Below, piece by piece: positions 2-43,600 of a DNA stretch of 64,000 nucleotides; the first letter of the stretch is position 1, and the number at the start of each line of letters is the position of its first letter. Origin of the DNA: a virus; the IMG/VR virus record IMGVR_UViG_3300032313_000500, positions 32,001 to 96,000 of that record; one strand, given 5' to 3'. A program made the position numbers and the translations under genes. Under the pieces are notes generated by a model that was not told the DNA's origin, did no database searches, and worked only from the letters and a program-made list of their open reading frames with translations.

Positions 2-3000
2 GGCGAAGATTACGAAAAGTCAGCCTTTGACGAAGAACTAGAAAATCTTGCTCAAATTCTTGATGAGACATTTGATGTAAAAGTTGGAAGAACTCTTAGT
101 TCTCGCAACATGTCAAAACTAAAAACTGTCCTAGAGACACTTCAGGATATTGTTTCATCAGCAGAAAAAGATGTTGAGTCAAAAAGCGATTACATCATTC
201 CTGTCAAACTGGAAAATGCGTTTGAGACCAAGCAGTTACTTGACCCAATTTTTGATTACCACAGAGTTGAATCTCATGTGACAGAAGACGGAATAGTCAT
301 CACAACAGGGGTAACTCAAGAATTTATAGAGGCCATTGGCGTGGCCGAAAAAGCCTTGGGGCGAACGCTGAGCGGTGGCCTGGGAAAATTAGGCCGCGCC
401 GGTAGGGGCGCGGTAAACTTTGACCCAAAAGCATGGGACGGTGACGGAGACGGAATCGTACAAGAAGGAACACCGTACTCACGTCCAGCAATACCTGGAG
501 TAAATGACCGCGCATCTGGCGGAAGAGTTGATGCCACTGCTGCAACCCGTGCATGGCAAAATCAACGCAGAGCCGGAATGGCATCACGTACTGGCCGTAT
601 GGATGCAGATGACAACTTTGACGAATACGACGAAGCAATGGGTCCACCAATGCGTCGTGCAGGTAGAGGAATGGCTGAAGACCCAACTGGCGACGCTGCT
701 TCAGAAAACCTTGATAGGGACAGAAACGCTGGCGCTGTAAGAAGAGGATTGAGTTCAAGCACACCAAAGCCTCGTAAAAAGTCAACCGATTACAAAAAAG
801 ACAAAAACTACACAGACCTTGACGATGACGACAAGAAAATTGTAGACGTAATTCAAGAAGCAATAGAAAACGGCGAGATAACGGGTGAAAGTTATTGGTC
901 GGATTGGGTGAGTAATACTCTTGGTGACTGGAGTCTGCAAGAACAGTACGAGGCTATTTATGGCAGGTCTGCTACTAGTGAAGACTTTCAAGAATCTGCC
1001 GACCAAAGCGGCAGTCGGTACAGAGATGGTGAAGGAAGATATGATGACGACATTGAGGAAGAATTCTATTCCGAATCAATAGCGGATGCATCCCCTCGTG
1101 AGAAACTAATAGGGCTAGTTGGAGAATACATGCCTGAGGGTTCAAAGTATGGCGACAAAAAGCACATTGCTGCACTTCGTCAATCTTTTTCTTCTGGAAG
1201 AAGCGGACTCAGTTCAAGCACTTCAGGTTCTAGAGGAAAACCGGAGCCGTTAAAGCGCGAGGGCGAATTTCACGGTGGGAATATCTACGACGAATTCAAT
1301 GGTCAATATGTTGAAGGTGAAGTAGTTGCTTTATCCGACCTTTATGGCGACGACAGACCAGGGTATGGAATAGTTGGTAGATACGACAGCGACGGAAGTG
1401 GCACTGTTGATTATTTCTACGGCGGAACGGACGACGAAGAATTTGAAACCATTGAGGATGCTATAGCGTTCTTGGAAAATGTTGAAAACGAAGCAGAAAA
1501 CGACAGATTCTATAACGAACCTGAATTTAGAAGCGTAGACCGTAAGCGTTCTGCTGGTAGACCTGGCGAAAGACCACTTGCAGGGTTTTCATCAAGCACC
1601 GCAGAGGTTGTGTCAAAAGATGACTTGCCAAAAGAACTTGTAAACGACGTAGCAAATGCTGCAGTTCGCGCCGTGGGCCGTAGTGGTGACGAGACACGAC
1701 TTATTGATGGGGCTAAAGAAGTATTGGCAAACCTTACTAGCGAAAAATTAAAAGACAGCGTCGGTAAGTCTATATCCAATGCAAGAAAACGATTAGCAGA
1801 AATGCTTTCTGACGAAAAAGTCATTGAAGAATTTCAGTCAAGAAAAGCAATTGAAGATTTTATGGACGAAGTGGGCTATGCCGTTCAAGAGATGCTTGAT
1901 TTACATGTTGGTTCTGTTAAAAAAAATGGAACCTCTGTTGAAAAAGAAGAAATTGAAGAAATTGTAGATAATGCAAAATCTAAATTTGATAATGATTTTA
2001 ATGAATTAGTTAAAGCGTCTAAAGAGTTTTGGAACAAGAGACGTAAGCCCGGCAGATTAGATGGCACTCCAGAAGAAGCAAAAAAAGAAGCAGCAATAGA
2101 TAGAAAAAATTTGATGGAAACCCTCAGGGAGGGTGGAGAGCCAGAAGACCTTGAATCAACGCTTGGTTCAATTTTTAAAATGTTTGATAATGATTCTGAA
2201 AAAATAATTTCCGGAACAATTTCTGTTGAAGATTTAAACTATCTAACAGAAAAAGCACTTGACCAAATTATTGAAAACGACCCATCAATTGACCCAGAAG
2301 AATTAGTAAACGAATTTGCTGAGGCTCTCCGTGAGGGAGCATCCAAGGATGGTGCAAACCCACTGATTGTTGCTTTAGCAAAAGAATTTGGCGATGAAAA
2401 GATTACTGGTGGCGACCTAATTGACTACCTGAATGACACTCGTCAAAATTCTGTTTACAGACCCGACAGAGGCAAGATTGAAAAAGAAAAACTTCGTGGC
2501 TTTGCTTCCAGGGTAGGCAATAACGACCCTGCCAACACTGGAGACGGAGAACGTGGTCTTGGTTCTTCATCCGATAAGCGTGAAATGGACATGACGCTTG
2601 CTGAATATGCAGAACTAGATAAAGTTCTTAAGAAATACATGGATGACAGCCAAGTAGACGGCATCGGTGCTGACGAAGACATGCAAGTAATTCAGGATAT
2701 TCTTGACAAACTTGATGAGAGTTCAGCCGCAAACGACTCAATTCCTCTTACGGACAAAGAAATTGACGACTACATGGACACTCTCACAAGAATGAGAGAC
2801 AACGGTCCAGTTGAAGATTTAGCAGATAAAGAATCAATAGACAAACTGATTGACTCCTTAAAGAAAACAAAAGAATCAACAGACGGAACCTACGAATCAG
2901 ATGCTCTTCAGCAGGCCGGAACAAGGCTCACTCCTCCTCCTGGCGGTCGTGGAAGAACCACAAAAGGCACTCGCCCATTCAAGAGTTCCAACGGAACAAT

Positions 3001-5890
3001 AAATCCACACAAAAAACTTGATTTTGAATTAGAAGATTCTGAAATTGGCGAACTTCGTGATGAACTTGATGGTTTTATGAAGATGACCAACAACCCTGGT
3101 CCACTTAGGGCTGTTGCTGAGAAACTAGAAAAAGCCACAAATGGCAAGTTTTCACTTGAAAAAGAAGAATACGAAGAAGTTGTAAAAGAAATAGAAAAAC
3201 TACGGACAGACAAAAAGATAGTTACATCAGACGTAATCGGACTTCTTGAGCAAGCAGCAGAATCCAAAAAAGGAAAGTACTCAAGCATTGAAGTCAATGG
3301 CGGACGAGGTTTCTCATCATCTACTGGTGGTGGCAAGAACAATGGAGCACCATCCGACATTCCCGAGACAATGCAAAAGCAATTACTCATGTGGGCTAGA
3401 CAGCAAAGAGGTCTTAGGCTCGCTCAAGAATCAGTTGAGAAGTTTGACAGGGACAAAGGAACTCTTCCAGCATCACATTGGAGAAGACTGCGCACCTTGT
3501 ATGAGAACATGGGACCAGGCTCAGCCAGTGGCGCTGCTCGCAGTGGTGGACGCAGAGGCATCTTCGGCCGTGGAAAAGATACTTCTCCGACTACGCAGGT
3601 TGGTCGTGGACCTTCCGCTGAAAGCAAACCACTACCCCAAGGCCTGCTTGATAACACAATGTCAAAAAATCCAATTGTCACAGATGGATTTACGGACATG
3701 AGGTCTGGAAGCATGGGTGGCTCACAGGGCGGAGGCGTATTCAAAGACCCAAAGACTGGTCAGGAATATTACATCAAGCCAGCAAAGACGCAGACTCATG
3801 CAGAAAACGAATCGCTAATGTCTCGTCTCTATGAAAGAATAGGTATTCCTGTTGCGAAAGTAAAAGTAGGAACCTACAAAGGTCGTCCAAAAATTGTTAG
3901 CATAATGATTCCAGGAGCAGAAAAAGTCAACCACGAATCCGAGATGAAAAAACCGGCGTGGAAGAAGGCGGTTCAAGATACTTTTGTGGCTAATGCGTGG
4001 CTTGCAAACTGGGACGCTGTTTCAAACGGCGGAAATACCATTAGGGGCGGAGACGGCAATGCGTACGTCGTTGATGTTGGCGGTGCTGGTCTTTTCCGAG
4101 CAAGAGGAGAAGCAAAGGGCTCGGCGTTTGGTCCTATCGTCGGGGAAATGGAATCCTTGAGAGACCCCAAACAGGACGGCGCTCAACGCGGTGTTGCATA
4201 CTGGGGAGATATTCCACCAGCAGAAATTGCTCGTCAGGTAAAAGTAATTGGAGCAATATCCGATTCTGAAATCAAACAAATGGTTGATGCGTTAATTTCT
4301 GACAAGGGTGAAGCAAAGAAACTTTCTGACACTCTTATTGCACGACGTGACTATCTCGTTCAAAACTGGAGCACTGGCAAAAACAGTGGCTCCGGCAGAA
4401 GAGGTCGTACTGGCTTTTCATCTAGAACAGACCCTAGCGACCTTTCCGACTACAGACCACCCCGGCGCACGCCTGGCGGAGTACCGGCAATGAGACCTGC
4501 CGATTTTGAAGTGCGAGCCGATAGCGAAGGCGTCACTGGTGTTGGCAAGGGTGGGGCAATGGGAACAAAGCCTGACAAAAAATTCTCTGGTGACTCTTTT
4601 GACCAAGTTAAGCCAGACAAGTGGGATGAACTCACAATTGACGAAAAATGGGAATGGATGCTTGGCGAAGGAAACCCTGAAAAGGGCGGAACCATGTCTC
4701 CTGCTGCGTACGAGGGCGCTATGAAGAAACTTGGCGACGAAGAAGCCAGAGAAGAAGCAAAGCGGATGTCTCCAGAAGAACGGAGAAAAGCCCGTACCGA
4801 GTCAAGAGAGAGCCAAAGAGCGCAACTTTCCGACAACGAAAAAGAAAGAATCTCTGCTGAAAGAGCAAAGCGTCAAGCAGATGCAGAAAGCCAATCCAAG
4901 CGAGTCAAGGAAGAGGCAACTGCAGAAAAAGCACAAGCCAAGAGACAGGCGCTTCTTGATGGTTTCAACGAATGGATTGATGACTCAGTCCGTCAACTTT
5001 CAGAAATGGAATATGACGGAACCGACATCAACCCTGATGCCGACGATATCTGGGACACCGTTTCCACAATCCTTGGCGTCAATGACATTACACCAAAATC
5101 CCTAAACGAAGCAATTGAGGAACTTTCATCATACGTTGACGTTAATTCACCTGGGGAAAATGCTTATGAAAAGAAGAGCATTGCCCGTGCCAACGCATTA
5201 TTGAAGAAACTTTCAAAGATGAAATCAGAGTATTCGGAAGACAAATGGTTCAACGGCAGAGAAGGCAGAAGGTCTGGATTTGACTCCAGAACTGGTGGCA
5301 GGCCACGTCCTGGAACCCCAGAAATGCCTCAATCAAACGCCAAGCGCGAGGGAGACATAAAAAGACTTTCCACACTGATTGAGCAGGTTGTCGCAGAACT
5401 TGAAGCAAAACGTCAAAACCCTTCACCCAAAAAGGGTCGCATGGGCTTCTCTTCGTCTACCGGAAAGACCATGATTACCGACGAAGCGACATTCTTTAAG
5501 GACATTGAGAATTCTCTTGCAAAAGAAATTAGAGCCGCACAGAAGGCCAAGAACACCAAGGCAATTACAGGGCTAACTAAACTTCAAGAAATAATCAAGA
5601 GAAACGAAGCATCCAAGACTGGCGACAGAAGAACAAATGTCGGAAGCATATACATGACGATGGATGAAGTTGACCTAATTCTTGACGGTCTTCAGTTTGC
5701 TCTTGACCAACAGGTGGACGCCGGTGGAGATAAGAGAATTGGCTGGTACTCAAAGTTGATTGAAAAGATTGCAGCAGCAGCCATGTCTACATTTATTGAT
5801 AAAAGCACAACAGAGATTGGTTCAACCAGAAGAACAGTCACCAACAAAGATGGCGTAAAGAAAAAAATCAATATTGTCCCAGAAGCATAA
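2..5890 (+). CDS. 5'-truncated giant head-associated polyprotein (>=1962 aa); probable C-terminal extension of an HK97-family prohead protease; contains a HipA/PI3K-like kinase domain (~3700-4370)
   Basis: The frame is open from base 2 (GEDYEKSAFDEELENLAQILDETFDVKVGRTLSSRNMSKLKTVLETLQDIV), so ATG110 is probably not the start. K.GR.LS..N...L is the helix that typically follows HK97 protease domains. Kinase motifs: GGSQGGG, YYIK, ENE, NWDAV..GGN, VVDVG. Also carries the DGDGDG tag (419-556) and 8 canonical G[FLM][AS]S motifs. Confidence 0.7.
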   Translation, partial: GEDYEKSAFDEELENLAQILDETFDVKVGRTLSSRNMSKLKTVLETLQDIVSSAEKDVESKSDYIIPVKLENAFETKQLLDPIFDYHRVESHVTEDGIVITTGVTQEFIEAIGVAEKALGRTLSGGLGKLGRAGRGAVNFDPKAWDGDGDGIVQEGTPYSRPAIPGVNDRASGGRVDATAATRAWQNQRRAGMASRTGRMDADDNFDEYDEAMGPPMRRAGRGMAEDPTGDAASENLDRDRNAGAVRRGLSSSTPKPRKKSTDYKKDKNYTDLDDDDKKIVDVIQEAIENGEITGESYWSDWVSNTLGDWSLQEQYEAIYGRSATSEDFQESADQSGSRYRDGEGRYDDDIEEEFYSESIADASPREKLIGLVGEYMPEGSKYGDKKHIAALRQSFSSGRSGLSSSTSGSRGKPEPLKREGEFHGGNIYDEFNGQYVEGEVVALSDLYGDDRPGYGIVGRYDSDGSGTVDYFYGGTDDEEFETIEDAIAFLENVENEAENDRFYNEPEFRSVDRKRSAGRPGERPLAGFSSSTAEVVSKDDLPKELVNDVANAAVRAVGRSGDETRLIDGAKEVLANLTSEKLKDSVGKSISNARKRLAEMLSDEKVIEEFQSRKAIEDFMDEVGYAVQEMLDLHVGSVKKNGTSVEKEEIEEIVDNAKSKFDNDFNELVKASKEFWNKRRKPGRLDGTPEEAKKEAAIDRKNLMETLREGGEPEDLESTLGSIFKMFDNDSEKIISGTISVEDLNYLTEKALDQIIENDPSIDPEELVNEFAEALREGASKDGANPLIVALAKEFGDEKITGGDLIDYLNDTRQNSVYRPDRGKIEKEKLRGFASRVGNNDPANTGDGERGLGSSSDKREMDMTLAEYAELDKVLKKYMDDSQVDGIGADEDMQVIQDILDKLDESSAANDSIPLTDKEIDDYMDTLTRMRDNGPVEDLADKESIDKLIDSLKKTKESTDGTYESDALQQAGTRLTPPPGGRGRTTKGTRPFKSSNGTINPHKKLDFELEDSEIGELRDELDGFMKMTNNPGPLRAVAEKLEKATNGKFSLEKEEYEEVVKEIEKLRTDKKIVTSDVIGLLEQAAESKKGKYSSIEVNGGRGFSSSTGGGKNNGAPSDIPETMQKQLLMWARQQRGLRLAQESVEKFDRDKGTLPASHWRRLRTLYENMGPGSASGAARSGGRRGIFGRGKDTSPTTQVGRGPSAESKPLPQGLLDNTMSKNPIVTDGFTDMRSGSMGGSQGGGVFKDPKTGQEYYIKPAKTQTHAENESLMSRLYERIGIPVAKVKVGTYKGRPKIVSIMIPGAEKVNHESEMKKPAWKKAVQDTFVANAWLANWDAVSNGGNTIRGGDGNAYVVDVGGAGLFRARGEAKGSAFGPIVGEMESLRDPKQDGAQRGVAYWGDIPPAEIARQVKVIGAISDSEIKQMVDALISDKGEAKKLSDTLIARRDYLVQNWSTGKNSGSGRRGRTGFSSRTDPSDLSDYRPPRRTPGGVPAMRPADFEVRADSEGVTGVGKGGAMGTKPDKKFSGDSFDQVKPDKWDELTIDEKWEWMLGEGNPEKGGTMSPAAYEGAMKKLGDEEAREEAKRMSPEERRKARTESRESQRAQLSDNEKERISAERAKRQADAESQSKRVKEEATAEKAQAKRQALLDGFNEWIDDSVRQLSEMEYDGTDINPDADDIWDTVSTILGVNDITPKSLNEAIEELSSYVDVNSPGENAYEKKSIARANALLKKLSKMKSEYSEDKWFNGREGRRSGFDSRTGGRPRPGTPEMPQSNAKREGDIKRLSTLIEQVVAELEAKRQNPSPKKGRMGFSSSTGKTMITDEATFFKDIENSLAKEIRAAQKAKNTKAITGLTKLQEIIKRNEASKTGDRRTNVGSIYMTMDEVDLILDGLQFALDQQVDAGGDKRIGWYSKLIEKIAAAAMSTFIDKSTTEIGSTRRTVTNKDGVKKKINIVPEA

Positions 5891-7376: not shown

Positions 7377-7392
7377 AGAAAGCGTGGCCCGT

Positions 7393-10300
7393 ATGACGGG
7401 GGTGAACATTAATAAAATTCGCCATTACGCGCCTGGATTCAATAATAGAACAACGCGTCTTGATGCGGATATGTCTGCATTGCTTTTCAAGGCGGGAACA
7501 AGAGTTATTTCATCATCGGAAAGACTAATAGCCGACGTCTCTATTAAGGCAGCAATGGGTGCAGGTGCTCCTGCCGATGATAAAAAAAGAGGCCTTCAAA
7601 GCGCTGGTAAATCAAAGTACATAAACATCAACGGTCTTGTTTATGACCCAGCAGCAAAAAAACAAGAAGGTCAATTCTTTAAACCGTGGATTACGGAAAG
7701 AGAAAGAATTAATGCCATGCGCTCAAGCGACCCAGTTCCCAACTGGGGATGGGTTGATGCGCATCCAGAGCATCAAAATAAACTTGAAGCGCCAAGGAAT
7801 TCAAAAGGCAAAGTAACAAGATATCCAGTAAATCCTAAAACTGGTGAGCCAATGAAGAACCAGGGGTTTGACCAAGAGTTCAAATCTCTTGGACCAACGC
7901 TTGGTGAAAGAAATCCTGGCGGAAAACTGCTTGCACGAACAGCAAAGGCCTTTGGTTTAGTAGTTGATGCTCTTGGAAAATTCAGATGCCCTCCCGGCAC
8001 TCCAGCAGCAAACAGGTTTACAAACGAAAGAGGCGAAGGCTGTTTTGATATTTCAGTAGCCCAAGTACGTAATTTGGTTGGTTCTTTAGCCGACTCAATG
8101 CAGGGACCGCAGAACAGGTCACAAATAGTGTCATCTCTTGCATCTGCGGGATTAAGTATTGCTGAAATTAGAAAGTCCTACAAAGAAAATGGTATTGCCG
8201 GACTAGCAAGCCTCGCACGGCGTGTAGGCATTGATTACGTCGGTGAAAAATGGAACGACATGTCATATGTTTCACAAATACCAGTAAGACTAAGAGAAAT
8301 TTCTGGCTTGACAATGGGCGCTCAGTCAAGAATGGAAAGAATTGTTCAGGAAAAGGCTGCAACAATTGATTTTCTTGCAGAATATTACGGCATAACGGAA
8401 ACTGATGAATATAAAAAAATTGGTGAAATAGTCAAAGCGATGTCTGCCGACCCGGACTCGCCTTTAGCACCAAATCAATTTGAACTTTTGTTTAGAGGTG
8501 GCACTCCAGAAAGTCATGAAGACTGGGCAATTGATGCGCTAATTGAAACACACATTGAGGCAATTAACCAAAAACTTGGACTTGGAGGAACTCCTGATGT
8601 AATTAGGAGAGACCCAGTAATGATGGCAAGAGTTGCTGCAGATGCAAAAGAAGAGTATCTGCGAGCAAAGGCCGCTGGCGAAGTAACGCCAATTACTCAA
8701 TTCATTGATGCTGGTTTGAGAAGAGAAAAAGATTTTAGACTCGGAGCGTTTGAGGATATGGTAATCGCCGCACATGAGCGACCTCATTCTTTCACCATGC
8801 CGAATGGAAGTAAAAGAACATACGTAGCAGATGTTGGTGCCGGATATCAATACGATAAAAATGGAGAGGCTTGGCCTGACACTATTTTAATCAACTCCGG
8901 ACCTGCTCTTCTTGGATTTAGAGATACTCCACCTGCTGGATACATGGACCTATACGAAGCAACAGGCGGAGATATTGACGACCAGTGGAGGGCAGTTGCT
9001 TCAGCAATGGATGCAGACGAGCGCCTCAGAGCATATGCAACGCTATGGGGTACCGACTTGGCGGCAACTGAAGGTCGTGGATGGAGAGATTTTGGAGCAC
9101 AAACCTCTGCTCATGAAAGAGCCCACTGGGGTCAAATGGATGCAATTTTCCAGTATCACGCAGATAACGGAACCGGAAGAAATATAGAAGACTTAAACAA
9201 CGATGAACTGATGGATTTAACTAAAGAATTCATGACAAAAGCATCACCAGAAATATTGAGTGACGTTTTTGGTATTGATATTGATGATTTAATTGATAAG
9301 CGTTTTGACGCTCTTGCTGGTGCTTATAGCCAAGTGAAGCAACAAGAGGCGCTTGGTGAATTGACGGGAGGAGGAACTTCTGAAGAATTTAACTATGCCA
9401 GAACTCTTGCGTTAATGGAGACGCTTGCGGAATTAAAGGCAAATAAAGCAGTCGGCCTAATAGGCGACGACCCGGAGTTGGATGCAATTCTTGAAAAAAT
9501 GGACCCACTACCACCTTTGACTGGTGGCTCAATATCCCCATCGGGTGGAATTGTTCCATCAAGACCCGATGGTTCTCCTGCTCCTAGGTTCGTGCCGTCT
9601 GGCCGCGTTAGACCAACACTCCCTGGTTCGGCACCAGCGCTGCCAACCAATGCTGGAAGGGTGGTTACAACAACTCCAGGAAGAAGTGGCGGAAGAGGCC
9701 GACGAGGACCGGTTGACCCGTTTGAAAAGGAAAGATACGGAAAAGTCCCAACGATGATTAAAGAGGGGCGCTTTACCCTTGAAGACATTGACGAGTTCCT
9801 GTATGGAGAAGACGGCAAAGGTGGACTCAAGCGAATGCTTGAAAGTGTTGCAAACATGCGCACTAAAAAGAACGGCTACACCGACCCAGCATTGGTTAAA
9901 AGAAAACGTCTACTTAATGAACTAGTTGACACAATGGGTATTTCTTTTCCCGAACTTGAAGCACTAGCGCTTAAAGCAAAAAGAGGAGAGTCTTTAACTC
10001 CAGAAGAAAAGTCAAAACTTGTTGACGCTATTTCACATTTAAGAAACGGTGCAAATGAGTTTAAGGCAAAATCTATTGAAGCAAGAAAGAAATTTGAAGA
10101 CTATCGGTCTGTTGATGTATCCAGGGCAACTGGTGACGGTTCCGAATACGACGAAAAAGATACGAACGTATTAAATCTTGAACAAATACAAGACGAAATT
10201 GAAATGTATGAAGCACTGTTCAATAGGGTTGGGCGCGGAATAGCGCCAGCAGTGCATGACATTCTTACAATGACAGAGAATGGACCATACCCTCACCGCC

Positions 10301-13077
10301 TAACCGCAAGAAGACCTGGTCCGCAACCACTTTTAGGAATTGATGTTGATGGTGCTGACGGCATTGCCTCAAGACAGGCTTCAAGACTCAGTCCGCAGGA
10401 ACTTTCCGCCCTTTCTTCTGCTGTAACGAATCCACCTAGAATTCTTTCATATCCAAACCCGCAAAACGTTCCTGAACTTACTTTACTTTTGGAAGATATT
10501 GAAGAGGTTAGACAGGTTTTTGAACGCAATAATTTAACACCACCAATTACCGTTGCGGATAATGAACTCCAAAATGCAGCCCCAGTTATGTCTGGATTGG
10601 ATAAATCGGTGCTTCCAAGCGACATGGTCGTTGAACTTGAAATTGATACGCCAGAAGACACTTCGCCAGGTTCAATCTATGAAATGTCTCAAATATCTTC
10701 GGCTCAACTCATAACGGATTCAAACACAGAGGAAGTTGATGTTCCACGGTCTGGTTTCTCTTCCACTACCGGAATGAGAACAAAGGCCGGAATTGCCGGG
10801 AGACTAATTGCAAGTAAGAGAACAAGAAAACTTCTTGAAAAAGCAGGAATTGACGCAGAAAGAACAGACGTTGTTCAGTTGATGAGTGAAGTTGCTATTG
10901 GTTTTTCGGTTGGAGGACCGTACGGCGCACTTATTCCTATAGCGCGACGTGGAAGCAGAGACGCTGCCGAGCAAGCGCTAAAAATGATGGTTGAACGCGG
11001 ATGGATTGAGCAAGACCTTGCTAACAAAATTGAAAAATATGGTCTTGACAGAATTGCCGCAGAAGGACTTCCTGACGAAATACTTAATTTAGCAGAATCG
11101 GCCAAAGACAGACTCTTAACGGAAGAATCAAAACGTAGGGCTCTTGATTTTGGTTCGGTTCTTCAAGAAAGAAGCATTGAATTATCTGAAGCAACTCGTG
11201 AAAAAGTATCAGAATTAGCCGACACAGGAAAAGAAAAGGCTCGCGAATTAGCAGCCTCGGGCATGGATAGAGCAAGAAGATTAAGAAGTCGCTTTGACAG
11301 GGACTCCGAAGAATTGGATGCAGGTGACCCGTTTTCCCTTCCTCCATCAGGTGGCGCTGTTGATATGCCTTCCCCATACGACGACCCATTTAAGTCCGCG
11401 TTTGTTGACATTGAGTTTAAGCAACTCGGTTCTTCAATCGGGGAGCAAAAGCAAGTTAAGAAAACCAAGGTAAGAGTTGCTGTTCCCGCTGGCTCAAAAG
11501 GCAAGATTGAATCAGGTAAAAGCAAGGCAAGCAACATGATTCTCCCTCCAGGAAAAGTAAAATTTACTGGAGTTGGCGAAGATGGAGTTCCTGAAGCAGA
11601 AATTACTGAACAGATGTCCGCTGAGGAATACATGAAGAATGTTGAAAAGATGTCTTCAGAAATTGCCTCATCTTCCAACAAACCAAGTCTAAAAAAGGCT
11701 GCAAAATTAAGAGCAGATACTGCTAAAAAAATGCGTCAAGAAATGACCGCCAAGTCAGGAACACCTCAGTCAATGTCCGGAATATCAAAAGTTGTATTTG
11801 ATAAATCAAACTCAATAATGGAAAGAGGAAAAGCGGCTGGTATTAATTTCTTCACTCTTGAAAAAGTAAAAAATGACGATACGGATATTGAGACATCCGA
11901 GTACGTGCGTATGTATCAAGAAAAACTTGTATCAACTATTAATAATTACAGCAAATCTTTACCATCTCGTCTTTTTGATGAAGAAATAAGCGCAGATACT
12001 AAAAAGTTTATTTACAGCAATTCAGTAAAAGAGATAGTTAAAGAGGTTAACAAAGTAGCAATGTTGATACACGAAGACATAGATAGAAGAGTACGTGTAT
12101 CAATGTCTAAATCTTCGTTAGAACAATTTGTTGGTTCTGGAAAAATTGCAAATATTGACGTTGATAGTGAATCTTTAAAGATTTTAAAAAACAAAAGAAA
12201 TTCAATGTTGGGTAATTCTCCTGGAATTAAAGAGTTTTCTTTTACTCCTGTTGAGTTTATGCACGGAGTAATGATTGAAAAAATTGAAAAACAACTTTAC
12301 GAAAATGGCACCCATGTTGGCTCCGAAGAATTTACAGATTACGGAAGAGGAATAGAACTTGTACTTCGCGCAGAAAATTCCCCAAGAATTGGATACGGAA
12401 GAAAAGAATCTTACAAAAACGGCGGAATTTTTGTACAAATAAACGAAGAAGACGAAAACCTTATTCAGGCTTCAATTTTTGGACAAATGTTTATGTCAAA
12501 AAATGGTGCAGAAGAATACTTGGCGGAGATTATTGAAGCAAGTCTTTCTGGTGACTATTCAAAACTAATAAAGAAAAATGACGAAGATGTATTTGAAGCG
12601 TTTATAGTTGGAGAAATATCACTTAACGATGTTGAGCACATCAAAATACCTTTGTCAATATTCAACATCAGAAAGAAAAGGGTCCCCAAGAGCAGCATGA
12701 TTGGTGGGGCAGACTCAATCAATATGATATTTATGAACAGAGGAGTTCCAAAAGAAAAAATTAAAGACTTCTTTGATAAAGACGGAACAATAGGTGGCGG
12801 ATACACGCCAAAGCATTTGTCTTACCTAAACGAGTTAGAGGCTGCAGAAGAATTTAAAGAAAACCTAATATCTCTAGGCATATCTGAAGTCATATTTACG
12901 AACAAAGACGGAATTGACATCATGAGTGAGGACACTTGGGTGACCCCACCTCCGACGAAGAAAAAGGGCAAAGACGCCTTGAAGGAGATAGCAAGAAAAG
13001 AAGTTATGTCAATTATTGACAAAATTGCCCCACCACCCAAAAAGCCAATTCCTAAAAAGGAGACTGCAAAGAAATGA
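7393..13077 (+). CDS. Giant virion-associated multidomain protein (1894 aa): RCPPG motif, HExxH zincin, split degenerate ART fold, C-terminal DUF3626-like domain
   Basis: ATG7393 just after the upstream stop (track start 7261 overlaps that gene). Motifs: HERAH; LDKSVLPSDMVV...VRVAVPAGSKG...MILPPG; TDYGRGIELVLRAE...FEAFIVGEISLNDVEHI. One GFSST motif at 10753. Confidence 0.7.
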   Translation: MTGVNINKIRHYAPGFNNRTTRLDADMSALLFKAGTRVISSSERLIADVSIKAAMGAGAPADDKKRGLQSAGKSKYININGLVYDPAAKKQEGQFFKPWITERERINAMRSSDPVPNWGWVDAHPEHQNKLEAPRNSKGKVTRYPVNPKTGEPMKNQGFDQEFKSLGPTLGERNPGGKLLARTAKAFGLVVDALGKFRCPPGTPAANRFTNERGEGCFDISVAQVRNLVGSLADSMQGPQNRSQIVSSLASAGLSIAEIRKSYKENGIAGLASLARRVGIDYVGEKWNDMSYVSQIPVRLREISGLTMGAQSRMERIVQEKAATIDFLAEYYGITETDEYKKIGEIVKAMSADPDSPLAPNQFELLFRGGTPESHEDWAIDALIETHIEAINQKLGLGGTPDVIRRDPVMMARVAADAKEEYLRAKAAGEVTPITQFIDAGLRREKDFRLGAFEDMVIAAHERPHSFTMPNGSKRTYVADVGAGYQYDKNGEAWPDTILINSGPALLGFRDTPPAGYMDLYEATGGDIDDQWRAVASAMDADERLRAYATLWGTDLAATEGRGWRDFGAQTSAHERAHWGQMDAIFQYHADNGTGRNIEDLNNDELMDLTKEFMTKASPEILSDVFGIDIDDLIDKRFDALAGAYSQVKQQEALGELTGGGTSEEFNYARTLALMETLAELKANKAVGLIGDDPELDAILEKMDPLPPLTGGSISPSGGIVPSRPDGSPAPRFVPSGRVRPTLPGSAPALPTNAGRVVTTTPGRSGGRGRRGPVDPFEKERYGKVPTMIKEGRFTLEDIDEFLYGEDGKGGLKRMLESVANMRTKKNGYTDPALVKRKRLLNELVDTMGISFPELEALALKAKRGESLTPEEKSKLVDAISHLRNGANEFKAKSIEARKKFEDYRSVDVSRATGDGSEYDEKDTNVLNLEQIQDEIEMYEALFNRVGRGIAPAVHDILTMTENGPYPHRLTARRPGPQPLLGIDVDGADGIASRQASRLSPQELSALSSAVTNPPRILSYPNPQNVPELTLLLEDIEEVRQVFERNNLTPPITVADNELQNAAPVMSGLDKSVLPSDMVVELEIDTPEDTSPGSIYEMSQISSAQLITDSNTEEVDVPRSGFSSTTGMRTKAGIAGRLIASKRTRKLLEKAGIDAERTDVVQLMSEVAIGFSVGGPYGALIPIARRGSRDAAEQALKMMVERGWIEQDLANKIEKYGLDRIAAEGLPDEILNLAESAKDRLLTEESKRRALDFGSVLQERSIELSEATREKVSELADTGKEKARELAASGMDRARRLRSRFDRDSEELDAGDPFSLPPSGGAVDMPSPYDDPFKSAFVDIEFKQLGSSIGEQKQVKKTKVRVAVPAGSKGKIESGKSKASNMILPPGKVKFTGVGEDGVPEAEITEQMSAEEYMKNVEKMSSEIASSSNKPSLKKAAKLRADTAKKMRQEMTAKSGTPQSMSGISKVVFDKSNSIMERGKAAGINFFTLEKVKNDDTDIETSEYVRMYQEKLVSTINNYSKSLPSRLFDEEISADTKKFIYSNSVKEIVKEVNKVAMLIHEDIDRRVRVSMSKSSLEQFVGSGKIANIDVDSESLKILKNKRNSMLGNSPGIKEFSFTPVEFMHGVMIEKIEKQLYENGTHVGSEEFTDYGRGIELVLRAENSPRIGYGRKESYKNGGIFVQINEEDENLIQASIFGQMFMSKNGAEEYLAEIIEASLSGDYSKLIKKNDEDVFEAFIVGEISLNDVEHIKIPLSIFNIRKKRVPKSSMIGGADSINMIFMNRGVPKEKIKDFFDKDGTIGGGYTPKHLSYLNELEAAEEFKENLISLGISEVIFTNKDGIDIMSEDTWVTPPPTKKKGKDALKEIARKEVMSIIDKIAPPPKKPIPKKETAKK

Positions 13078-19689: not shown

Positions 19690-19690
19690 T

Positions 19691-30258: not shown

Positions 30259-30272
30259 CCCAATTTTATCAC

Positions 30273-34403: not shown

Positions 34404-34607
34404 CCATCACATAAACACTTGACAAAACATTACGAAAGTGCTAGTCAATACACATCACATGACGTTATACCTGATTGTAGATAATGCCTCATGACCCACA
34501 CAAAAGTGCTCCTCACAAGCACACTTTTACACATCACATAAGTCGCATCAAACTATTAGTTACACACACTTCACACACCACACAGTGAGGTGTTCTACAA
34601 TGAGTCA

Positions 34608-37600
34608 ATGCCTTTCTCTTATGACATAGAACCAAATGACTCACCACGTCTAAGGCGTCACATGTCAAGAGTAAATAGTGATGACAGACTAGAAGTCAAA
34701 GCACTAGGTCCGAACCTAGGGCAACTCGCACGAAGCGCACAGGTCTTTGACCCTAACGCATACGACGGTGACGGTGATGGTGTAGTACAAGACGGCACAC
34801 CCTTTGAGAGACCAGCAGTGTTGTCTAACATTGCCTCAGTAGCACGAGGACTCGCAAGCACCACGGGTGGCTACGGGTCATACACACCAAGAGGTTCGTG
34901 GACAGTAGGTCTCACCAATGAACAGGTAGCAGAGAGGGCAGTGCCTAGCACGCCTGCTGCTTTCGTTGAGATGATGGTCGCTCAACAAGGCTCCACGGGT
35001 AACCTATCTGACAGTGTGCAGAAGGCACTAGACATAGCAATCTTTGACGAGGAGAGGGTCGCTGAACTACGTGACACATTGCGTAACGCACTAGACGAAA
35101 GACCTGAACTACGAGCAGCCTTTGATAGGTTCGGTTGCCCACCCATAGGTGTACACCCCAACAAAGACGAGGATGGAGAAGGTATTGGATATGGAGGTAT
35201 CGCTTATGGTAAGCAAGCAATCTTCATAACAGAAAAGACACTAGACAAAGGCGCTATGTCAGAATGGTTTGGTAGAAGGAAGTTCTCTGCGAAAGTATTC
35301 TCCTTCACTACATTCGCACCAAGAGTAAAAGGTGTTGACCGTGCCTTCACAGGGGAATCAGCAGAAGACATCATCACCCATGAGTGGGGTCACTACCTCA
35401 ATCACCTAGTAGCAGACATAGCACCAGACCCAGAACTGCGTGAGTTAGCAGGAGCCCTAGGGCAAGGCTCTTGGTACATGTCAACTTACTTCACTCGCAT
35501 TCCTCCAAAAGTGAAGAGGATGTTTGAGTACTTTGATGGAGCCATGAAGAGTGGTGAGAAGGTAGACCAACCAGTTGGTGTTCCATTCGTCAAGAGCGTG
35601 TATGGCACCTCAATGCCATGTGAGTTCTTCGCAGAATCAGTAGCAGCATACTTCTCCCCTCGTCGTAAGAGTAGAGAACTACTCAACGATGAAGGAATAG
35701 AAATAGTTGAACAAATGCTTGGCATTAGAGGAGCATCTCGCAGTGGATTCGCATCACGAACAGGTTCTCTAAAAAGCAGTACGGGTAGTACCCTGCGTGG
35801 TAAGACACCACAAGAGATAGCAGACATTGTAGTACCCAAGACAAAAGCAGAAGCAATCGCATTGTCTGACGCACACAACGCTTTACTTACAGACCCAGAT
35901 GGTGTTCGTTACACGGCATCAGAACCAGACAAACTAAAAATAATTATCCCCAAGGGTATTGACGCTATGGACTTCTCACCCGAAGCAGTGTCTCGTATGA
36001 AAGAGATGGTCGTAGAAGCACTCTCAAATAACCCTGAGTTCCATGAAGCAGTACAAAGATTTGGTATGCCACCTGTTCTGATAACAAAGCCAGGCGAAAG
36101 ACTGGATGGGGCGTACGCCATTGCTGGTGTAGAGGGTTTCCCTGCTATCACTATTGACTCAACAATGAGAGAACAAGCATTGGCCAAAGGGTGGTGGCCT
36201 AATGGTATTTACGAAGATGAACCATTCATCAAAGGGACAGAGGGCTTCTCTACAAGTCCCACGAGTGAAGGATTCTTTATTCATGAATGGGCTCACTACC
36301 TCAATCGCCTAGCATTAGACATACACCCAGACGAAGAGATGAGAGAATTAGCACGCTTTTGGTGGAACGACACTTGGATACTAAATGCAGCCATTCCTAG
36401 GCTTACGAGATTTCTAAGGGGATTAGGTAAACCAAAAACACGAATAGATGCTAGATACAGGGGCGCTGATAAATTCTATTGGGCAACACGTGACAACAAA
36501 TCCGTTGACTTTACGGGTTACCCACACGTAAAGACACAGTATGGACAGTCACAACCAGCAGAAGCGTTTGCCGAAGCAGTAGCAGCAGTACTCTCCAAAG
36601 ATGTTGACGACAAAGAGTTGGTCAGTCCTGAAATGCGTAGAGATGTTCTTGACATGCTTGGTTTCTCACCTTCGGTCAAAGAGATAGACAGAGCAGGCAG
36701 TTCAGAGGGTAGAGGTAGTGGGTTTGCCTCAAAGACTGTCACCAGAGGACCTGATGGCACGAGAATTATTAACACATCTGACCCTTTCACACCGTTGAGT
36801 GGTTCTGATTGGCTAAAAGACGCTACGGATGACGAGGTAGCAGATGCTGTAACGCCTACGAGTATTGATGACGCAATAGCGCTTACGATAATGAATACGT
36901 CATACGGGGACGACCCAGCAAATTACCCAGCAGAAGAAGCAAAAGTACGTCAAATAATGACGGACCACATCTTCAAGTTTTACGGTAGGGACAGCAATGG
37001 GCAAATAGCAACAGACGCAAACGGGAAGCCCATTAGTTTCTCTGTTCCTTACGATTTTTCTCCACAAGGCAGACAAACAGTCAAAGACATGGTCAAAAGA
37101 ATGATGGCAGAGTCGCCAGAATTCTCATGGATGATTAGACGCTTCGGGTGTCCACCAATGATGGTTATAGACGAAGCAAAACTCACCCAACTAAACAATC
37201 AGGTTGAACAAATGCGTCTTGCTGGTCAAGACATCTCTCTTCCGTTCCATCTCGCAAACGGAGCAGTCGGTGGTTTTTCGGTAGGTACTTACGGGATAAC
37301 ACTCAGGCCTGACCCCACAACAGACAACTTACCAATGGGATTTTACAGAGGGTTGGCAGCAAAAAGAAAGACTGGAAGGATAATCACAAATCCTGACGGA
37401 AGCAGGGAAGAAGAAAAAGAACACTGGATGAACAACTTCGGACTATCCCTAGCCGATAAGGCTATTCACGAATGGGCTCACTGGTTCTACGCAACCGTAA
37501 AAGGAAACAAAGGACTACTAGGTAAGTCACGCAGGGGAGATAGAAAATCTCGTCTTTCCTACTTGTTCCCTGGTATTCCTATGGCAGATGCTGAGAAAAT

Positions 37601-40600
37601 GACAAAAGAGTTCCTTGACGCTTTTGACGCAGACGGTTTCATACCTTTCAACGGCATGAGTGCGCAATATCTTGAAAGAATAATGACGACAGCACGAAGA
37701 AGCATCAATAGAAACCTAGGCAACAAACCACTAACGGAACAGTTACTTGCCGACGCAAGATTCGTGGACCTAATCAACGACTATGTGAATAATGTAATCA
37801 ACGCCCCTAATGATTGGTCTCCCTCGCAGGCACAGGAATTCGCCGACCAGATAGCGATTGAGTTTCCTTATCTAGTAGATGACATGCCACCACTTATTGC
37901 TGGAACATACGCAACAGCAACTCGTCAAGAACTATGGGCAGAAGCAATACTTTTGTTCTCCTCACCAGACAGAAAGTTAAAGGCTAAGTACCTAACGCCA
38001 GAGATAGAAGCATTTATTGCTTACGCGTTAGGGTTGAAGCCAGACAGAGACCCAAGTACTCCTTATCAAAAACCGTGGGCACATCGTAGTGGTTTGTCAT
38101 CCTCTTCACGGGTGAGGAGATTACACGCAGCGCAAGACAGCATAGATGAAAGAGTCTCCGACAAGGACGACGGGTTCGCTAGTAGAAATGCCGGCGATGC
38201 TAAATCAACAACAGTAAAGATGTCTCGTGAAACATCTAGTACGTCACGATTTACGGTTGGTGACTACGAGTTTGACATAACAGATGAAGATTTGTCTACT
38301 TATGATTGGGATACTGCTTACGACCAGTGGACAACTTGGTCGGGCAACTGGCGCATGCGTCATTTGTCGTCAGCAATGATGGGTATAGAACAGCAACCCA
38401 CAAAGGGTGGCGAAGAGTCGCTATCAACAGTCCACGAAGTAATGCGCTCGGGTGAACTGCTAGACGCACCTAACCATGTAAAAGACTCCGTTCGTGAATC
38501 ACTGATAAACACACATAAGACGATGGAAAAAATCTCTATGGGTGACACAGTTAGCGATAGACCGTTGTACCGAGGACTTGGTTCAGTTCCTGATGATTCA
38601 GAGATACTGATGGCAGAACAGGGTGAGACAATAACGTTCCCACTTAGCGCGTTCACCCCAGACAGAGGATTAGCCACAACATTCGCCGACATGAATGCCG
38701 AGAGCGACAAAAAAGTAATCCTCCAACTTCAAAATGGTGCCCATGTAGCGTCTAGTGACTACACAACACAGATAAGAGACCTAGAAAGCGACTGGGTAGA
38801 AGTACCAATTGAGTCCGTTACCCAAGGAGAGTTCACTGTCGTATCCAAGCGTGAGCAAGACGGGTACACGGTTGTAGAACTATCGCACTCTAAGACGTTT
38901 GACCCACTATCAGGAAAGATGGTTGACACGAACGTTCGTGAGGGGTTCGCTTCTTCCAGCATGAGACCAGAGCGACGGGTATCCGATAGCGCTATCCGTA
39001 CGCTTACAGACAACATGGACTTCCTACGAGATAACCCACCAATGGGTAAGGGTGGCAAAGACCTAGACGACCGTTGGGCAGAGCAGACGATAGGAAAACT
39101 TCGCAGTGGCGAGATAACTCAGGAGGATGCGTTTGACCTAATGAATGCTGTCATTGAGATACTCAGCGACGGGTTCAGTAAAGACCCAAGCCAAAAAGAG
39201 AATCCAGAAGGAAAACTTCTCGCCTATCAAAAACTCGTAAAGCGCTTACGCAAACTTGCTGTTGGTGGCATGAGCAAAGACGACATGGACGACCTCCGTA
39301 GAGAGCAGGGAATCATCCCTACTGTCACCAACAAGCCAAAGCCGACTCCTTATGCTGGTGGTCGTTTCGGCTTCTCTTCCACAACAAGAAGAGAAGAACT
39401 ATCTACTCGTGCGCAAGAACGTATTGACGCCATTGACGCACAGGTAGAAGAACTTGAATCATTCAACCGACGTCTAATGAGAGCAATCAGTGAACTTCAA
39501 GCCACGGGCAACTGGGAAGGCGAGAAGCACGACGTTTTCCTCAAAGAGGGCAACAGTCCCAAGACCTACACTAAGGAGCAATTGGAAAGCAACGGATGGA
39601 CACAGAGAGTAAGGGAAGAATCAGCAAGGGCTCATCTTGATAGAGAAATGTATGTAAATAGTCTAAAAAGAGAGAGAAACGACCTTGAAGATAGTCAAAA
39701 GCGTCTTGCTGGTGAATATCCAGAAACAACAATGCTTGTTGACGAGTTACTACTTGACGAAGACAATGTAGAGAGCATCTTGGCGAGGTCGTTAGAAGTT
39801 GATTCAATGAGCCAACAACAAAGAGCAGAAAGATTCACCGACCCCAATGACCCTAACGCAGTGTATGTGGTTCATTTTGGAGCGACCAAACTAGAAGGTG
39901 GTCAGTTGGACCCTTCTCGTTCACGAGGACAGGTTGGACAAGGTATCGCTGGGAATACTCGCCAGATAAATGACGAGACAGCCAGATATATGGTCGGATT
40001 GCGTGATGATGCGAAGCGGGACCTATCCATCCTTGAAGAGATGAAGCGCCAGATTGAGACTGATGGCGTGATTGACTTTGACGCAATCGCACGAACCGAC
40101 ACTAGAGACTCCTTCCGGGCAGGGAGGGCAAGACTACTGCTCGGTCTAAATCGCCGTGACCCAGAACGCTCAACACATATACCAGAAGGCTGGCAGGTTT
40201 CCAATATTGACGGCGCTATCGGAGATAAAAACAACGTCATATCTAGACTTGACAAGGTTGCCGACCAGTTGATTGCAGACGACTATCAATACACGAGTAC
40301 ATACAGGGCGTCAGCATTGCAAGACCTACTCGGCTCGTATGGAGGAAGATACGCAGAGGGCGACTCTACGGAATGGGGCGACAACGCAAGGCGCTCAACA
40401 ACTACTGGTATCCATATCTTTAAAGTAAGAATAGGTGATGACGCAGTTGAGCAGAACAGCGTTGGAGAAACTCACCTAGTTGGCAAACACACTCCAATCG
40501 CTTCACTCGTTGTAGACAGTAGCGCTAACGACGACAATCCTGCTCGTGAAATCTGGAAGGGTTGGCTTGATTCGGTAATTGAACAAGACATTGGTAAAAA

Positions 40601-43600
40601 CAATGCACGTCGCTCAGGATTTGCTTCCAGGGCTTCCGTAAGAGAGTCATCACGGGTTATCGGAGAAGACGGAGATGCTAGCAAGCCTTCAATACTCGGA
40701 AGAGCAAAAGATAAACTAAAACTAAACGATAGACAAGTCGGTCATATTAATTCAATGACCAACAAGATGCACTCAATCTTTACTAGTGGAAAAATTTACG
40801 ATGAACCAATCCATCCAGCAATTGATGACAGAAGAAAAGAACTGCTTGATTCAATAAGGGTTGTAAGAGCAGAGGGTGGAATGACGATGATTGTCGCCGA
40901 ACCAAACCCAGTATTTAATGCTTATTTGCCAGTAAAGAGAGACTGGGCGTCTATTGAACTACCGTCCCGCGAAGCAGTTGCCGAGGCAATAGAGAAATTG
41001 AAATCAAACAAAGGAGGCAGGCGCTCGGACACTTATGGCTCGGGTGCATTTACGGACCATCTTGAATCATTGCTTCAAGAGATAGGGAAGTTGGGTGAAG
41101 GTCCAGGAGACCTTCCGTACGAGGGAGGAGAAGGAAACTACATATCCTATGTTCAGCAATACTACGACTCAATAAGAAACCCTGTTGGTGCTTCACGTCT
41201 GCTCCAAGGTAGCGATGGAATGCATGATGCGTTCGGACACTTTGGTACAGGCAGAGGCTACGACAGACATGGGGAGTGGGCTAACTATCTAGCAATGAAA
41301 GACATGATAGACGCATCGCCACTTACTGACGAAGAGAAAGAAGATGCTCATAGATTCTGGTTTAGAGAGTATGGGTGGCTTCAGTTCGCAAAACGTGGAG
41401 ACCTAGAAGAAGTAGACGATAATTTACGTTTCATGGCAGACGACTATGACGGACCGTTCAGTGACATTTTGGAAATCATTGACTCTGGTCACAACGGTCT
41501 TGACGACGTACCAGAAGAAGAAACACCTTCAGGCAAGACCATCTCAGATACTTCAGCGTCAGAACTGAGACAAGCAGCAAGAAACGACGCTGAGGCACAA
41601 CTAGAAATGAGTCGTAGTGGGTTCTCTAGTACAACGAGAGACACGGGTAGAAACAGAGAAGTTTCTGCTGAATACACACAGGGCATATTCGGCAAACTAA
41701 AAGCCCTTAAAGAGCGACTTGGTTACGGAAAAGACTTTGAAGAAAAAGTAAGCAAAGAAAAACTTGACACCAGAATAGAAGAAACAGCCGCTTATGCCAA
41801 GCGCATCATTGACTGGGATGCTGGAAAAGACGTCGTACTGCCTCAAAGTGCTATTGATTACATAAAAGACGTAGTTGCAAGAAACGCTTTCTTTACTTCA
41901 GACAAACGTGCTGATGGTGGTGCGAGTTTGATACCCATACAGGCGGCACTTAGTAAGTCCTCTCCTGACGTATGGCCAATAGGAACCCCGTTGCCCCCAA
42001 GTTTGGCATTAGAGATATCAAGACAAATACATATCGCTAGAGGCGATACTGAAATGGTCGCAAAAATTGATGAGTTTAAAAATTACTTAAAAACAGTCAC
42101 TCCAGAACAATTGAGCGAAGACATAAGAGCAGCGTCTTTAGTATATGGCGAGTCAATTGACAAGCGTGTTTTGGTTAGAACGAGAAGCGTAAACCCTTTT
42201 ATTAAAGGAAGTCGCACCATACTTACTCAGCACGACAGGGAAGAACGAGAAGCGGCTGGCGTTGAGTCTATGAACATGATGGGTGACGGCATTACTACAA
42301 GCGCAAGAAGGAAAGTTGAAGCAAACCTTTTAGGTCTACCATTTGAAGAAGGGGTAGAAGACTCTCCAGAAGTAAGGGAACTAAGACCAACGTCTGGCTA
42401 TGTAACCACTTCAAAAACAGCATTGGCACGAAAAGAAAAGTTTAAAGAAATTTACGGCGACGATGTTGAACTAATGTATGACGGTCCTGCTGGAACAGCG
42501 CTAGAGCATTCTCAAAACAACACCGGGAAGTATGGTCCCTCGCAGTTTGTGCTGCGCCCAGCAGTTGCCGAGCGCACAAGGGTTTTTGATGCAGACACAG
42601 TAGATATGTCATTGAAAGACAACCCCCCTCTACAACTTAGTGCCCTTGAAGAAGACGGCATTTTTCTTGGTGGCACCACCAACCCCATCGGAATGCTTTA
42701 CGACTACAAGACTGGTGACACTTATCCAACGCCTTCTGGAGCATTTGAGGGAAGTTCCGACACTCATTCAAGTCAAGGAACTGCAGCAAGTTACAAAGAA
42801 GCATTGGTTCTTGGAAGGTTCAAGCCCGAAGAAGTTGAAGCGATAATTGCCGCACCAGCAGACTTTAGAAAAGAAGACGGAGAATTATCCGAAAGACTTA
42901 ATCCAAATAACGAAGCAAACTTCAGCCTATTGATTGATATGGCGCGTTCACGTGACGAACTAATGCAAGAACACGGCATAGAGGTTGTTCCCAATATTAG
43001 AAGAGGTGTATTCAAAACCGATGACGTTGAGATGTTTAACCCAGCAATGACTGACGTGTGGTTTGATACGAACTTTGCAGATAAGGGCTTATCAAAAGAA
43101 GAAATAGTTCCAGACAAATCAACTACACCATACGAAGCGTACCTAAGAGTATTAATAGCAACAGGAGAACTTCCTGAAATGTTTGAATACCGTGGTCCTA
43201 GTGGTAAGAGCGAAGAAGAGAAAGATGCTTGGAAGAGGGATGCGCTCAAGAAAGAACTCGCTAGAGTAGTAAGCCTCAAGAAAGACAAAGAAGTCAGCGG
43301 CACTCGTAGTCCCGGCTTCTCTTCTCGTTCGTCAAGAGCATCTGCAAAGAAAATAACCAAGAATTTCAAGGTAAACGGCAAGCCTCGCAAGGCTCCAGTT
43401 GACAGAGATGAACTCATACGACGTGCTGTCCCTCAGAACGCAGCCGACATGATGAGAATCATTGAAGAGTCTCCATACATGGAGGGCAAGAAGAGCAAAC
43501 AAGAAATCTATGAACTCATCAACATGATGGACATAGATTGGGTAGCCCAACAGAAGATGCGTCTCAAACTTGAGAGAGTATTGATGGATTCACCTGCATT

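Follow-up and report, generated by a model that had tools for sequence, protein, structure and literature searches.

A recurrent pentapeptide at module borders in giant myovirus proteins: a candidate lineage-specific processing code

Introduction

Why would one short peptide recur at intervals along several giant proteins of a single phage? The question is raised by a 64,000-nucleotide stretch of viral DNA (IMG/VR record IMGVR_UViG_3300032313_000500), referred to here as the window, in which five very large proteins carry repeated copies of the sequence G-[FLM]-[AS]-S-[SRKT]. The window corresponds to G000:C1:32001-96000, that is, to part of a single viral contig of 118,470 bp (genome G000; CheckV completeness 79%) that belongs to a myovirus. 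An earlier note on this DNA proposed that the proteins are polyproteins that are cut at the peptide into separate effectors for injection.

Two key questions related to this proposal are: (i) whether the peptide is a real and constrained feature of the proteins; and (ii) what would read it. We find that the motif is concentrated in the giant proteins, that it lies in flexible linkers at the borders of exchangeable modules, and that its sequence changes in concert from one phage genome to the next. It is quite probably a processing code for a protease, whichever enzyme does the cutting. As to the enzyme, we lean, at a little better than even confidence, towards a phage-encoded protease of the S78 family.

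Results

Occurrence of the motif

The five window proteins contain 22 canonical copies of the motif, all of them in frame at the coordinates given in Table 2, just as the earlier note had listed them; the three variants that it named (GLGSS at 2555, GFDSR at 5276 and GMRSR at 17417) are also present. From composition, 0.35 copies would be expected by chance in the 9229 amino acids (aa) of these proteins, and 2000 shuffles of each protein never gave more than two. When the scan was extended to the whole G000 genome, the motif proved to be concentrated in six giants (11,179 aa), which hold 25 of the 26 copies, with a single copy in the other 27,189 aa. The count of five giant carriers given at the outset is correct for the window, but a sixth, a putative tape measure protein, lies outside it.

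The extended consensus of the motif is R-[SR]-G-[FL]-[AS]-S-[RST]-T-G, with Arg at position -2 in 14 of the 22 copies. All 22 copies are different 15-mers at the nucleotide level, and the invariant Ser is encoded by TCN as well as AGY codons. Selection therefore acts at the level of the protein, as had been suspected from the differing codons, and a DNA-level repeat as the cause of the motif is ruled out. The motif is real, non-random and functionally constrained.

Linkers, cassette borders and conservation

The relationship of the motif to protein domains was analyzed in ORF I (open reading frame I), which carries ten copies. Residues 1-1200 (numbered from nucleotide 34608) were modelled with AlphaFold2 (AF2) and aligned with 29 homologues of 31-80% identity. 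In the model, only residues 1-19, 21-96, 128-132, 374-388, 687-707 and 1159-1200 have a predicted local distance difference test score (pLDDT) of less than 50, and the low-confidence segments part three folded domains. All five motif copies of this region, at residues 81, 380, 705, 1162 and 1189, are inside low-confidence segments and none is in a folded domain. The comparison of modelled domain borders with motif positions, which the earlier note had recommended, thus agrees with its claim that the motif falls between domains. The claim also holds in ORF A for a module resembling ADP-ribosyltransferases (ARTs), which matches annotated phage ARTs (tblastn, E down to 3e-29) and is flanked by copies at window residues 1103 and 1471. 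It is unconfirmed for the protein kinase that had been placed in the same ORF, as there is no Pkinase match anywhere in the genome and the only kinase-like domain is a P-loop domain in ORF G. Across 25 copies, the 30 residues flanking each copy have a hydrophobic fraction of 0.176, compared with a background of 0.276.

Homologues of ORF I reveal the same organization over a wide range of divergence. There are 46 of them in metagenomes, and those with as little as ~30% identity hold 4-8 copies at matching positions. Where relatives of ORF I have large insertions, the alignment places a motif copy at both ends; examples are a 400-aa cassette (P0009/P0013), a Nudix cassette (P0027/P0029) and cassettes in P0003 and P0042/43. 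Among 153 internal BLAST breakpoints in the ORF I family, 53% are situated no more than 15 aa from a copy, compared with 10% of random positions. Together these observations support a role of the motif as a module delimiter that is located in flexible linkers, at the borders of exchangeable cassettes. Domains found in homologues of the giants include Nudix, RNase_T and DUF3626.

The alignment also supports strong purifying selection on the motif. Residues G380 and S383 of ORF I are invariant across 30 sequences, down to 31% identity, and the only comparably conserved positions in ORF I are HExxH catalytic residues and a few structural ones. Each of the three folded domains has one HExxH that is invariant in 30 homologues, and a further HExxH is found close to the protein's C-terminus. 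The Foldseek matches of the domains are weak (E 0.1-1), and every one of them (PPEP-1/Zmp1, anthrax lethal factor and 4l7a) is a zinc endopeptidase.

Lineage-specific codes

The N-terminus of ORF A matches 332 loci in IMG/VR, and related IMG/VR contigs have the same gene order. The recurrent peptide varies between these genomes, yet it is uniform across the giants within any one genome (Table 1). The matrix of codes is diagonal, with off-diagonal counts of ~0, and shuffles give ~0.3. Common to the codes is a core of x-x-[A/S/R/K]-S in which the Ser is invariant. The codes can differ between close relatives, with GFSS and GLRS/GLSS being found in contigs whose ORF A N-termini are 77% identical. 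Dozens of sites that are independent of one another, in proteins with no relationship to each other, change in concert, which implies a single reader of the code, which would be phage-specific, would co-evolve with its sites and would have shifted its specificity between lineages.

Table 1. Recurrent peptides in the giants and tape measure proteins of G000 and related genomes
Genome	Peptide in giants	Copies in giants	Peptide in tape measure	Tape measure residues
G000 (this window)	GF[AS]S	16	canonical motif	42, 607, 618
G000 (this window)	GLAS	5
G001	STRS	30	STRS x2	44, 625
G002	GLAS	15	GLAS x3	27, 586, 595
G003	SSRS	13	only SARS	51
G004	GMAS	11	GFRS, GMSS	24, 596
G005	G[ML]RS	9	GMAS, single copy	615
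L064	RLSS	13
L071	G[ML]RS	19
L104	GSKS	8

A tag that precedes the motif

Four of the giants (ORFs A, F, G and I) are otherwise unrelated and have in common a segment of ~45 aa, LG..G..AR.A..FDP.AWDGDGDG.VQEGTP.ERP, with a calcium-loop-like core, DGDGDG. This tag is present in 3-6 ORFs per related genome. No motif copies are N-terminal of it, and the first copy comes 30-90 aa past it in every lineage, in each lineage's own version of the code. The order of tag and then motif is also found in single-module cargo ORFs of ~540 aa in G003. The tag, taken by itself, is disordered in the AF2 model of ORF I. By analogy with known head proteins, the tag is a putative capsid-targeting or docking signal, and it is also a candidate docking site for a protease.

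The S78 protease and the capsid protein

ORF A begins 982 nucleotides upstream of the window (G000:C1:31018). The earlier note was right to count it as a motif carrier, but the window holds only part of the protein. The upstream part of the protein matches Pfam Peptidase_S78 (PF04586) with E 7.9e-14 over profile positions 15-155 of 165, the score of 48.3 bits exceeding the cut-off of 21, and profile searches of G000 for Peptidase_S77 and S78_2 found neither. Three residues, H61, S125 and H157, do not vary among 22 homologues of 48-71% identity and by analogy would form the catalytic triad. In a model of the domain with a pLDDT of only 60-75, the best Foldseek match is to the Epstein-Barr virus protease (E 0.015, prob 0.95); E-values are weak overall, and the other weak fold matches are to T4 gp21 and the proteases of herpes simplex virus 2, Kaposi's sarcoma-associated herpesvirus, pseudorabies virus and varicella-zoster virus. 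The gene order of portal, ORF A and capsid is that of the HK97 type.

In the lineage of G000, the prohead protease is therefore the N-terminal domain of a motif-rich cargo protein, in which it is followed by the tag, the first motif and the modules. In the lineages with STRS and GSKS codes, a gene of its own (~470 aa) encodes the protease, and the tag comes first in the giant. In an AF2 model of ORF A residues 1-560, the first motif is not docked in the protease, and the motif region is of low confidence. Between the S78 domain and the tag are a small well-folded domain (residues ~215-285, pLDDT ~85) and a helical region (336-446). One position of the protease, column 88 of the S78 alignment, varies with the code. 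It falls in a loop, E-V-x-P-x-D-x-R-L-P-x-K-M-x, and is Lys in 12 of 12 distinct sequences from lineages with Arg or Lys before the Ser, and Leu, Ile or Arg in 11 of 12 lineages with Ala or Ser there.

A maturation site in the capsid protein that would match the junction code was sought and was not found. At its N-terminus the capsid protein has a coiled-coil extension of ~70 aa, followed by a poly-Ala stretch, AAAAAG, that does not vary, and by a conserved F-L-x-S-x-E-F.

The tape measure protein

The sixth carrier in G000 is the putative tape measure protein, whose latter two motif copies are within a Gly-rich stretch. In four of five divergent genomes, the tape measure homologue has its own genome's code or a near version around residues 25-50 and/or 590-625 (Table 1). 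In most lineages, then, the code has a genuine target in the tape measure.

Genome context

The features discussed here are listed in Table 2. Baseplate J is also among the structural genes found in G000. The interval between the portal and capsid genes consists of 24 kb of large ORFs, namely A (2290 aa), B (474), C (1938), E (673), F (1098) and G (1083). ORF I is 10 kb downstream of this stretch and is surrounded by genes for a class II ribonucleotide reductase, a Toprim/AAA_25 primase-helicase, a DUF932 protein and a SNF2 helicase; these replication and nucleotide genes place ORF I among early or replication genes, off the head operon. ORF E has a conserved length (653-689 aa) and position in all related loci, and is a conserved head-module protein; it has neither tag nor motif and no match in Pfam, PHROG or PDB, and an ESM Atlas look-up gave low-score leads only. 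In relatives of ORF G, only the first ~600 aa are kept.

Table 2. Features of the window and of the adjoining contig (ORF coordinates in nucleotides)
Feature	Window	Contig C1	Strand	Remarks
Tape measure, putative		10811-15487	-	1558 aa; outside window, downstream of sheath gene; weak PHROG match
Tail sheath		16761-18236	-
Large terminase		27255-28598	-
Portal		28852-30909	+
ORF A (ORF1)	1..5890	from 31018	+	last 1962 of 2290 aa in window; eight copies: 575, 746, 1205, 1583, 2498, 3308, 4412, 5444; variants 2555, 5276
S78 domain, ORF A		31084-31524		residues 23-170; just upstream of window
Tag, ORF A	350..508		+	LG..G..AR.A..FDP.AWDGDGDG.VQEGTP..RP
ART-like module, ORF A	3737..4369		+	window residues 1246-1456
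ORF C	7393..13077		+	1894-1938 aa; one canonical copy, 10753; two HERxH motifs
ORF E	14046-16067			673 aa
ORF F	16064..19360		+	1098 aa; tag ~16742-16900; copies 17117, 17465; variant 17417
ORF G	19649..22900		+	1069-1083 aa; tag ~20345-20503; copy 20672; one HEWFH zincin motif near residue 890, C-terminal, in G000's lineage only
DUF3721, ORF G	19691-19800			N-terminal; two repeats
P-loop domain, ORF G	20870-21289			Zeta-toxin/AAA_33-like
Major capsid protein	23257-24615	55257-56615	+	HK97 fold
Capsid N-terminal region	23257-23560
Replication/nucleotide genes near ORF I	27842-29884, 45953-47686, 51593-52618, 53331-55244		all -
ORF I	34590..44228		+	3206-3212 aa; tag ~34677-34835; ten copies: 34848, 35745, 36720, 38091, 38172, 38943, 39369, 40617, 41619, 43314
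Three tandem zincin-like domains, ORF I	34896..38081		+	residues 97-373, 389-686, 708-1158

Brevibacterium phage Cantare and Gordonia phage GMA6 have capsid proteins with 46-48% identity to that of G000. Beyond the capsid protein, the head region has no resemblance to that of these phages, and BLASTP found no similarity of ORFs E, F and G to the portal, gp11 and protease of Cantare. Apart from the S78 domain, searches of the giants against Pfam and PHROGs matched only Zeta_toxin/AAA_33/DUF3721 in ORF G and, weakly, a 'minor head protein' PHROG. Neither the ORF I family profile nor phmmer with the ORF A N-terminus yielded anything usable among PDB sequences, and tblastn of ORF I against cultured phages gave no match. 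Two cultured actinophages, Gordonia phage Sixama (MN484601.1 31765-38213) and Actinomycetia phage DSL-LC01 (52800-62669), encode large ART-bearing or 3289-aa proteins between their portal and protease/capsid genes. A scan of the giant of DSL-LC01 found no junction motif, and so the code appears to be confined to the family of G000.

Discussion

A processing model

Cleavage, the enzyme that performs it, packaging and delivery are all inferred here. The reading that we favour, at slightly better than even confidence, is that the pentapeptide is the site of a phage-specific endopeptidase, with the S78 protease as the preferred cutter of tag-addressed, polyvalent virion proteins. That the motif is a protease-processing code of some kind, with all possible cutters taken together, is considerably more probable. 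In the proposed mechanism, a cargo protein would consist of an optional N-terminal domain (the S78 protease in ORF A), the ~45-aa tag, the first motif and then exchangeable modules, each of which would end in another motif copy within a flexible linker. Once cut, the modules would be detached from the tag as well as from one another, and they could then exit with the DNA. Modules released in this way would include the ART, the zincins and the P-loop kinase-like domain, and in relatives a Nudix or an exonuclease. The most likely cutter would be the S78 protease fused to ORF A, and the scissile bond would probably be the one before the invariant Ser, [A/S/R/K]↓S. Such a bond fits both the V/L/I-x-A↓S sites of assemblins and the K↓S site at which the capsid protein is cut by HK97 gp4. 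Gene position and the tag suggest that the giants would be delivered into the recipient cell together with the DNA.

The idea of effector polyproteins with which the analysis started has thus gained from several sides: the location in linkers, the cassette borders, the selection on the motif, the concerted code, the fusion of S78 to ORF A, and the order of tag and motif. In its head-confined version it is incomplete, because the tape measure bears the genome-specific motif.

A number of observations weigh against cutting by the S78 protease, or against cleavage in general. The main difficulty for cutting that is restricted to the prohead is that the tape measure is a tail protein and should escape a protease that is confined to the head. 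The capsid protein, moreover, has no copy of the motif, whereas one motif serves both capsid protein and cargo in T4 and phiKZ; its AAAAAG[YG][ST] junction is the same in the GFAS, GMRS and STRS lineages and does not change along with the code. Hardly any variation is seen in the S78 core between lineages with different codes (GFAS, STRS and RLSS). Column 88 is a possible determinant of specificity, but associations between its residues and the code are confounded by phylogeny. ORF C, the weakest member of the set, has a single copy and no tag was found in it. Finally, no cleavage product has been observed, and there is neither a cultured relative nor a proteome.

Other readers of the code

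If the motif is cut, the cutter could be another enzyme. It is possible, if unlikely, that the HEW[GA]H zincin modules of the cargo act on it, in cis or in trans and perhaps not before ejection into the host, in the manner of MARTX toxins. The zincins are the most conserved part of ORF I, with the HExxH motifs invariant throughout the alignment; each of the three domains is bracketed by motif copies, and the fold matches, weak as they are (E 0.1-1), are all to zinc endopeptidases. A cytoplasmic or post-ejection cutter would also account for the code in the tape measure, and zincin-mediated processing of polyvalent proteins was predicted by Iyer et al. (PMC5512222). The same modules could equally be anti-host effectors, however, and they have no MPTase-PolyVal family match. 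An ORF I homologue was found in one of five related contigs, but these are 54-88% complete and the count is indecisive. A host protease that cuts after ejection would likewise explain the sites in the tape measure, and codes that differ by lineage would then track different hosts. This we regard as improbable, as the code differs between the close relatives with 77% identical ORF A N-termini, which is faster than a host protease would be expected to change.

Alternatively, the motif might not be cut at all. It could be a docking peptide for a phage partner, such as a chaperone, a packaging adaptor or a component of the ejection channel, that handles proteins travelling through the tail. Head cargo and tape measure, the two classes that carry the motif, are both expected to eject through the tail tube; the copies are in disordered linkers, and genome-specific co-variation would suit any co-evolving binding partner. 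On the other hand, small residues around an invariant Ser, the exact position at cassette borders and the copy that follows the tag even in single-module proteins are typical of processing sites, and a candidate partner was not found, so that docking seems to us rather unlikely, more so than cutting by the zincins. The least probable of the readings is that a phage or host enzyme phosphorylates the invariant Ser or modifies it in another way. The invariance of the Ser at position 4 would be accounted for, and the motif has a basophilic look, with Arg at position -2 in most G000 copies or at position 3 in other lineages; potential modifying enzymes are the P-loop kinase-like domain of ORF G and the ART of ORF A. 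Zeta-toxin/AAA_33-type P-loop domains, however, phosphorylate small molecules or nucleotides, not proteins. A phosphorylation site is a weak reading because the genome has no protein-kinase family match and its only kinase-like domain is the P-loop domain of ORF G, and modification leaves the positions at cassette borders and after the tag unexplained.

Comparison with known systems

In outline, cleavage of the giants by an S78 protease would resemble the processing of MARTX toxins, in which swappable effector domains are joined by unstructured linkers that are cleaved by a cysteine protease of the toxin itself. Both would have exchangeable cassettes on one chain, cut sites in linkers and a protease in the same protein. 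MARTX is a secreted bacterial toxin, whereas the G000 proteins would have another protease family and another delivery route, and there is no homology between the two. A second parallel is the herpesvirus UL26 protein, which is cut at R and M sites. The A↓S core of assemblin sites resembles G-[FLM]-[AS]↓S, in which the position of the bond is presumed, with the difference that the hydrophobic residue is at P2 and not P3. In UL26, the assemblin is fused to the scaffold that it cuts, and releases itself through the R site (PMC4498786). As is proposed for ORF A, UL26 has a Ser-His-His protease N-terminal to its own substrate (PMC4498786), and weak matches suggest the same fold for ORF A; unlike UL26, the substrate in G000 is a string of enzymes rather than a scaffold.

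The closest precedents for a motif shared among injected proteins are in phages. In T4 and in phiKZ/SPN3US, the prohead protease cleaves ejection proteins where they carry a consensus motif (PMC3012670, PMC10052503), which is L/I-x-E for T4 gp21 and A/S/G-x-E for gp175/gp245 of phiKZ/SPN3US (PMC3012670, PMC10052503, PMC9026906). In the internal proteins of T4, a capsid-targeting sequence is followed by the cleavage site and then by the protein (PMC3012670). T4 IPI-III/Alt and the phiKZ/SPN3US proteins are like those of G000 in that unrelated cargo shares a targeting-like peptide and then a motif, and an ART is among the cargo (PMC3012670, PMC10052503, PMC9026906). The differences are that the cuts reported for T4 and phiKZ/SPN3US remove propeptides, mostly at the N-terminus, whereas G000 has up to ten sites per giant of 1000-3200 aa, dividing it into modules; that the G000 protease belongs to the S78/HK97 type and is fused to one of its presumed substrates; and that the tape measure carries the motif.

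The giants also resemble the polyvalent proteins of phages and conjugative elements, described by Iyer, Burroughs, Anand, de Souza and Aravind in 2017 (PMC5512222), in which giant phage proteins are chains of ARTs, zincins, Nudix domains, nucleases and kinases, with a predicted entry into the host along with the DNA. Several unrelated enzymatic domains per polypeptide, by which such proteins are defined, are found in G000 (an ART in ORF A, a P-loop domain and a zincin in ORF G, and three zincin-like domains in ORF I). Their processing by embedded or assemblin-like peptidases is predicted in the same paper (PMC5512222), with the assemblin-like peptidase at the C-terminus; in G000 the S78 domain is N-terminal. 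The hub domain MPTase-PolyVal (PF18818) has no match in the G000 genome at E <= 1, and the zincins of G000 are of the HEW[GA]H type. The passages of PMC5512222 that were searched name no inter-domain junction peptide, genome-specific code or shared tag, and the word 'linker' is absent from the main text.

Implications

The cutting of injected head proteins by prohead proteases is already known, as are giant polyvalent proteins with predicted processing. In the literature we found no description of a junction code that divides giants into many modules, of its concerted change per genome, of its pairing with a shared tag, or of its extension to the tape measure. We tentatively suggest, as a possibility that is still doubtful, that the lake-type myovirus family represented by the 332 IMG/VR loci has a programmable junction code, in which each lineage has its own signal of four to five residues and a matching protease, that the code governs both capsid cargo and the tape measure, and that cutting is timed for the release of swappable effectors in the newly infected cell.

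If cutting does take place at the peptide, many enzymes could be packed and delivered as a few giant precursors, and effector cassettes could be exchanged at defined joints. Prohead-protease biology would then extend from the trimming of propeptides to the processing of polyproteins, and the order of tag, code and module would provide a rule for reading the unannotated giants of uncultured phages. That the tape measure obeys the same code raises the question of where and when the cutter acts. A programmable code, if true, would be the phage counterpart of MARTX toxins and would provide natural pairs of orthogonal proteases and sites.

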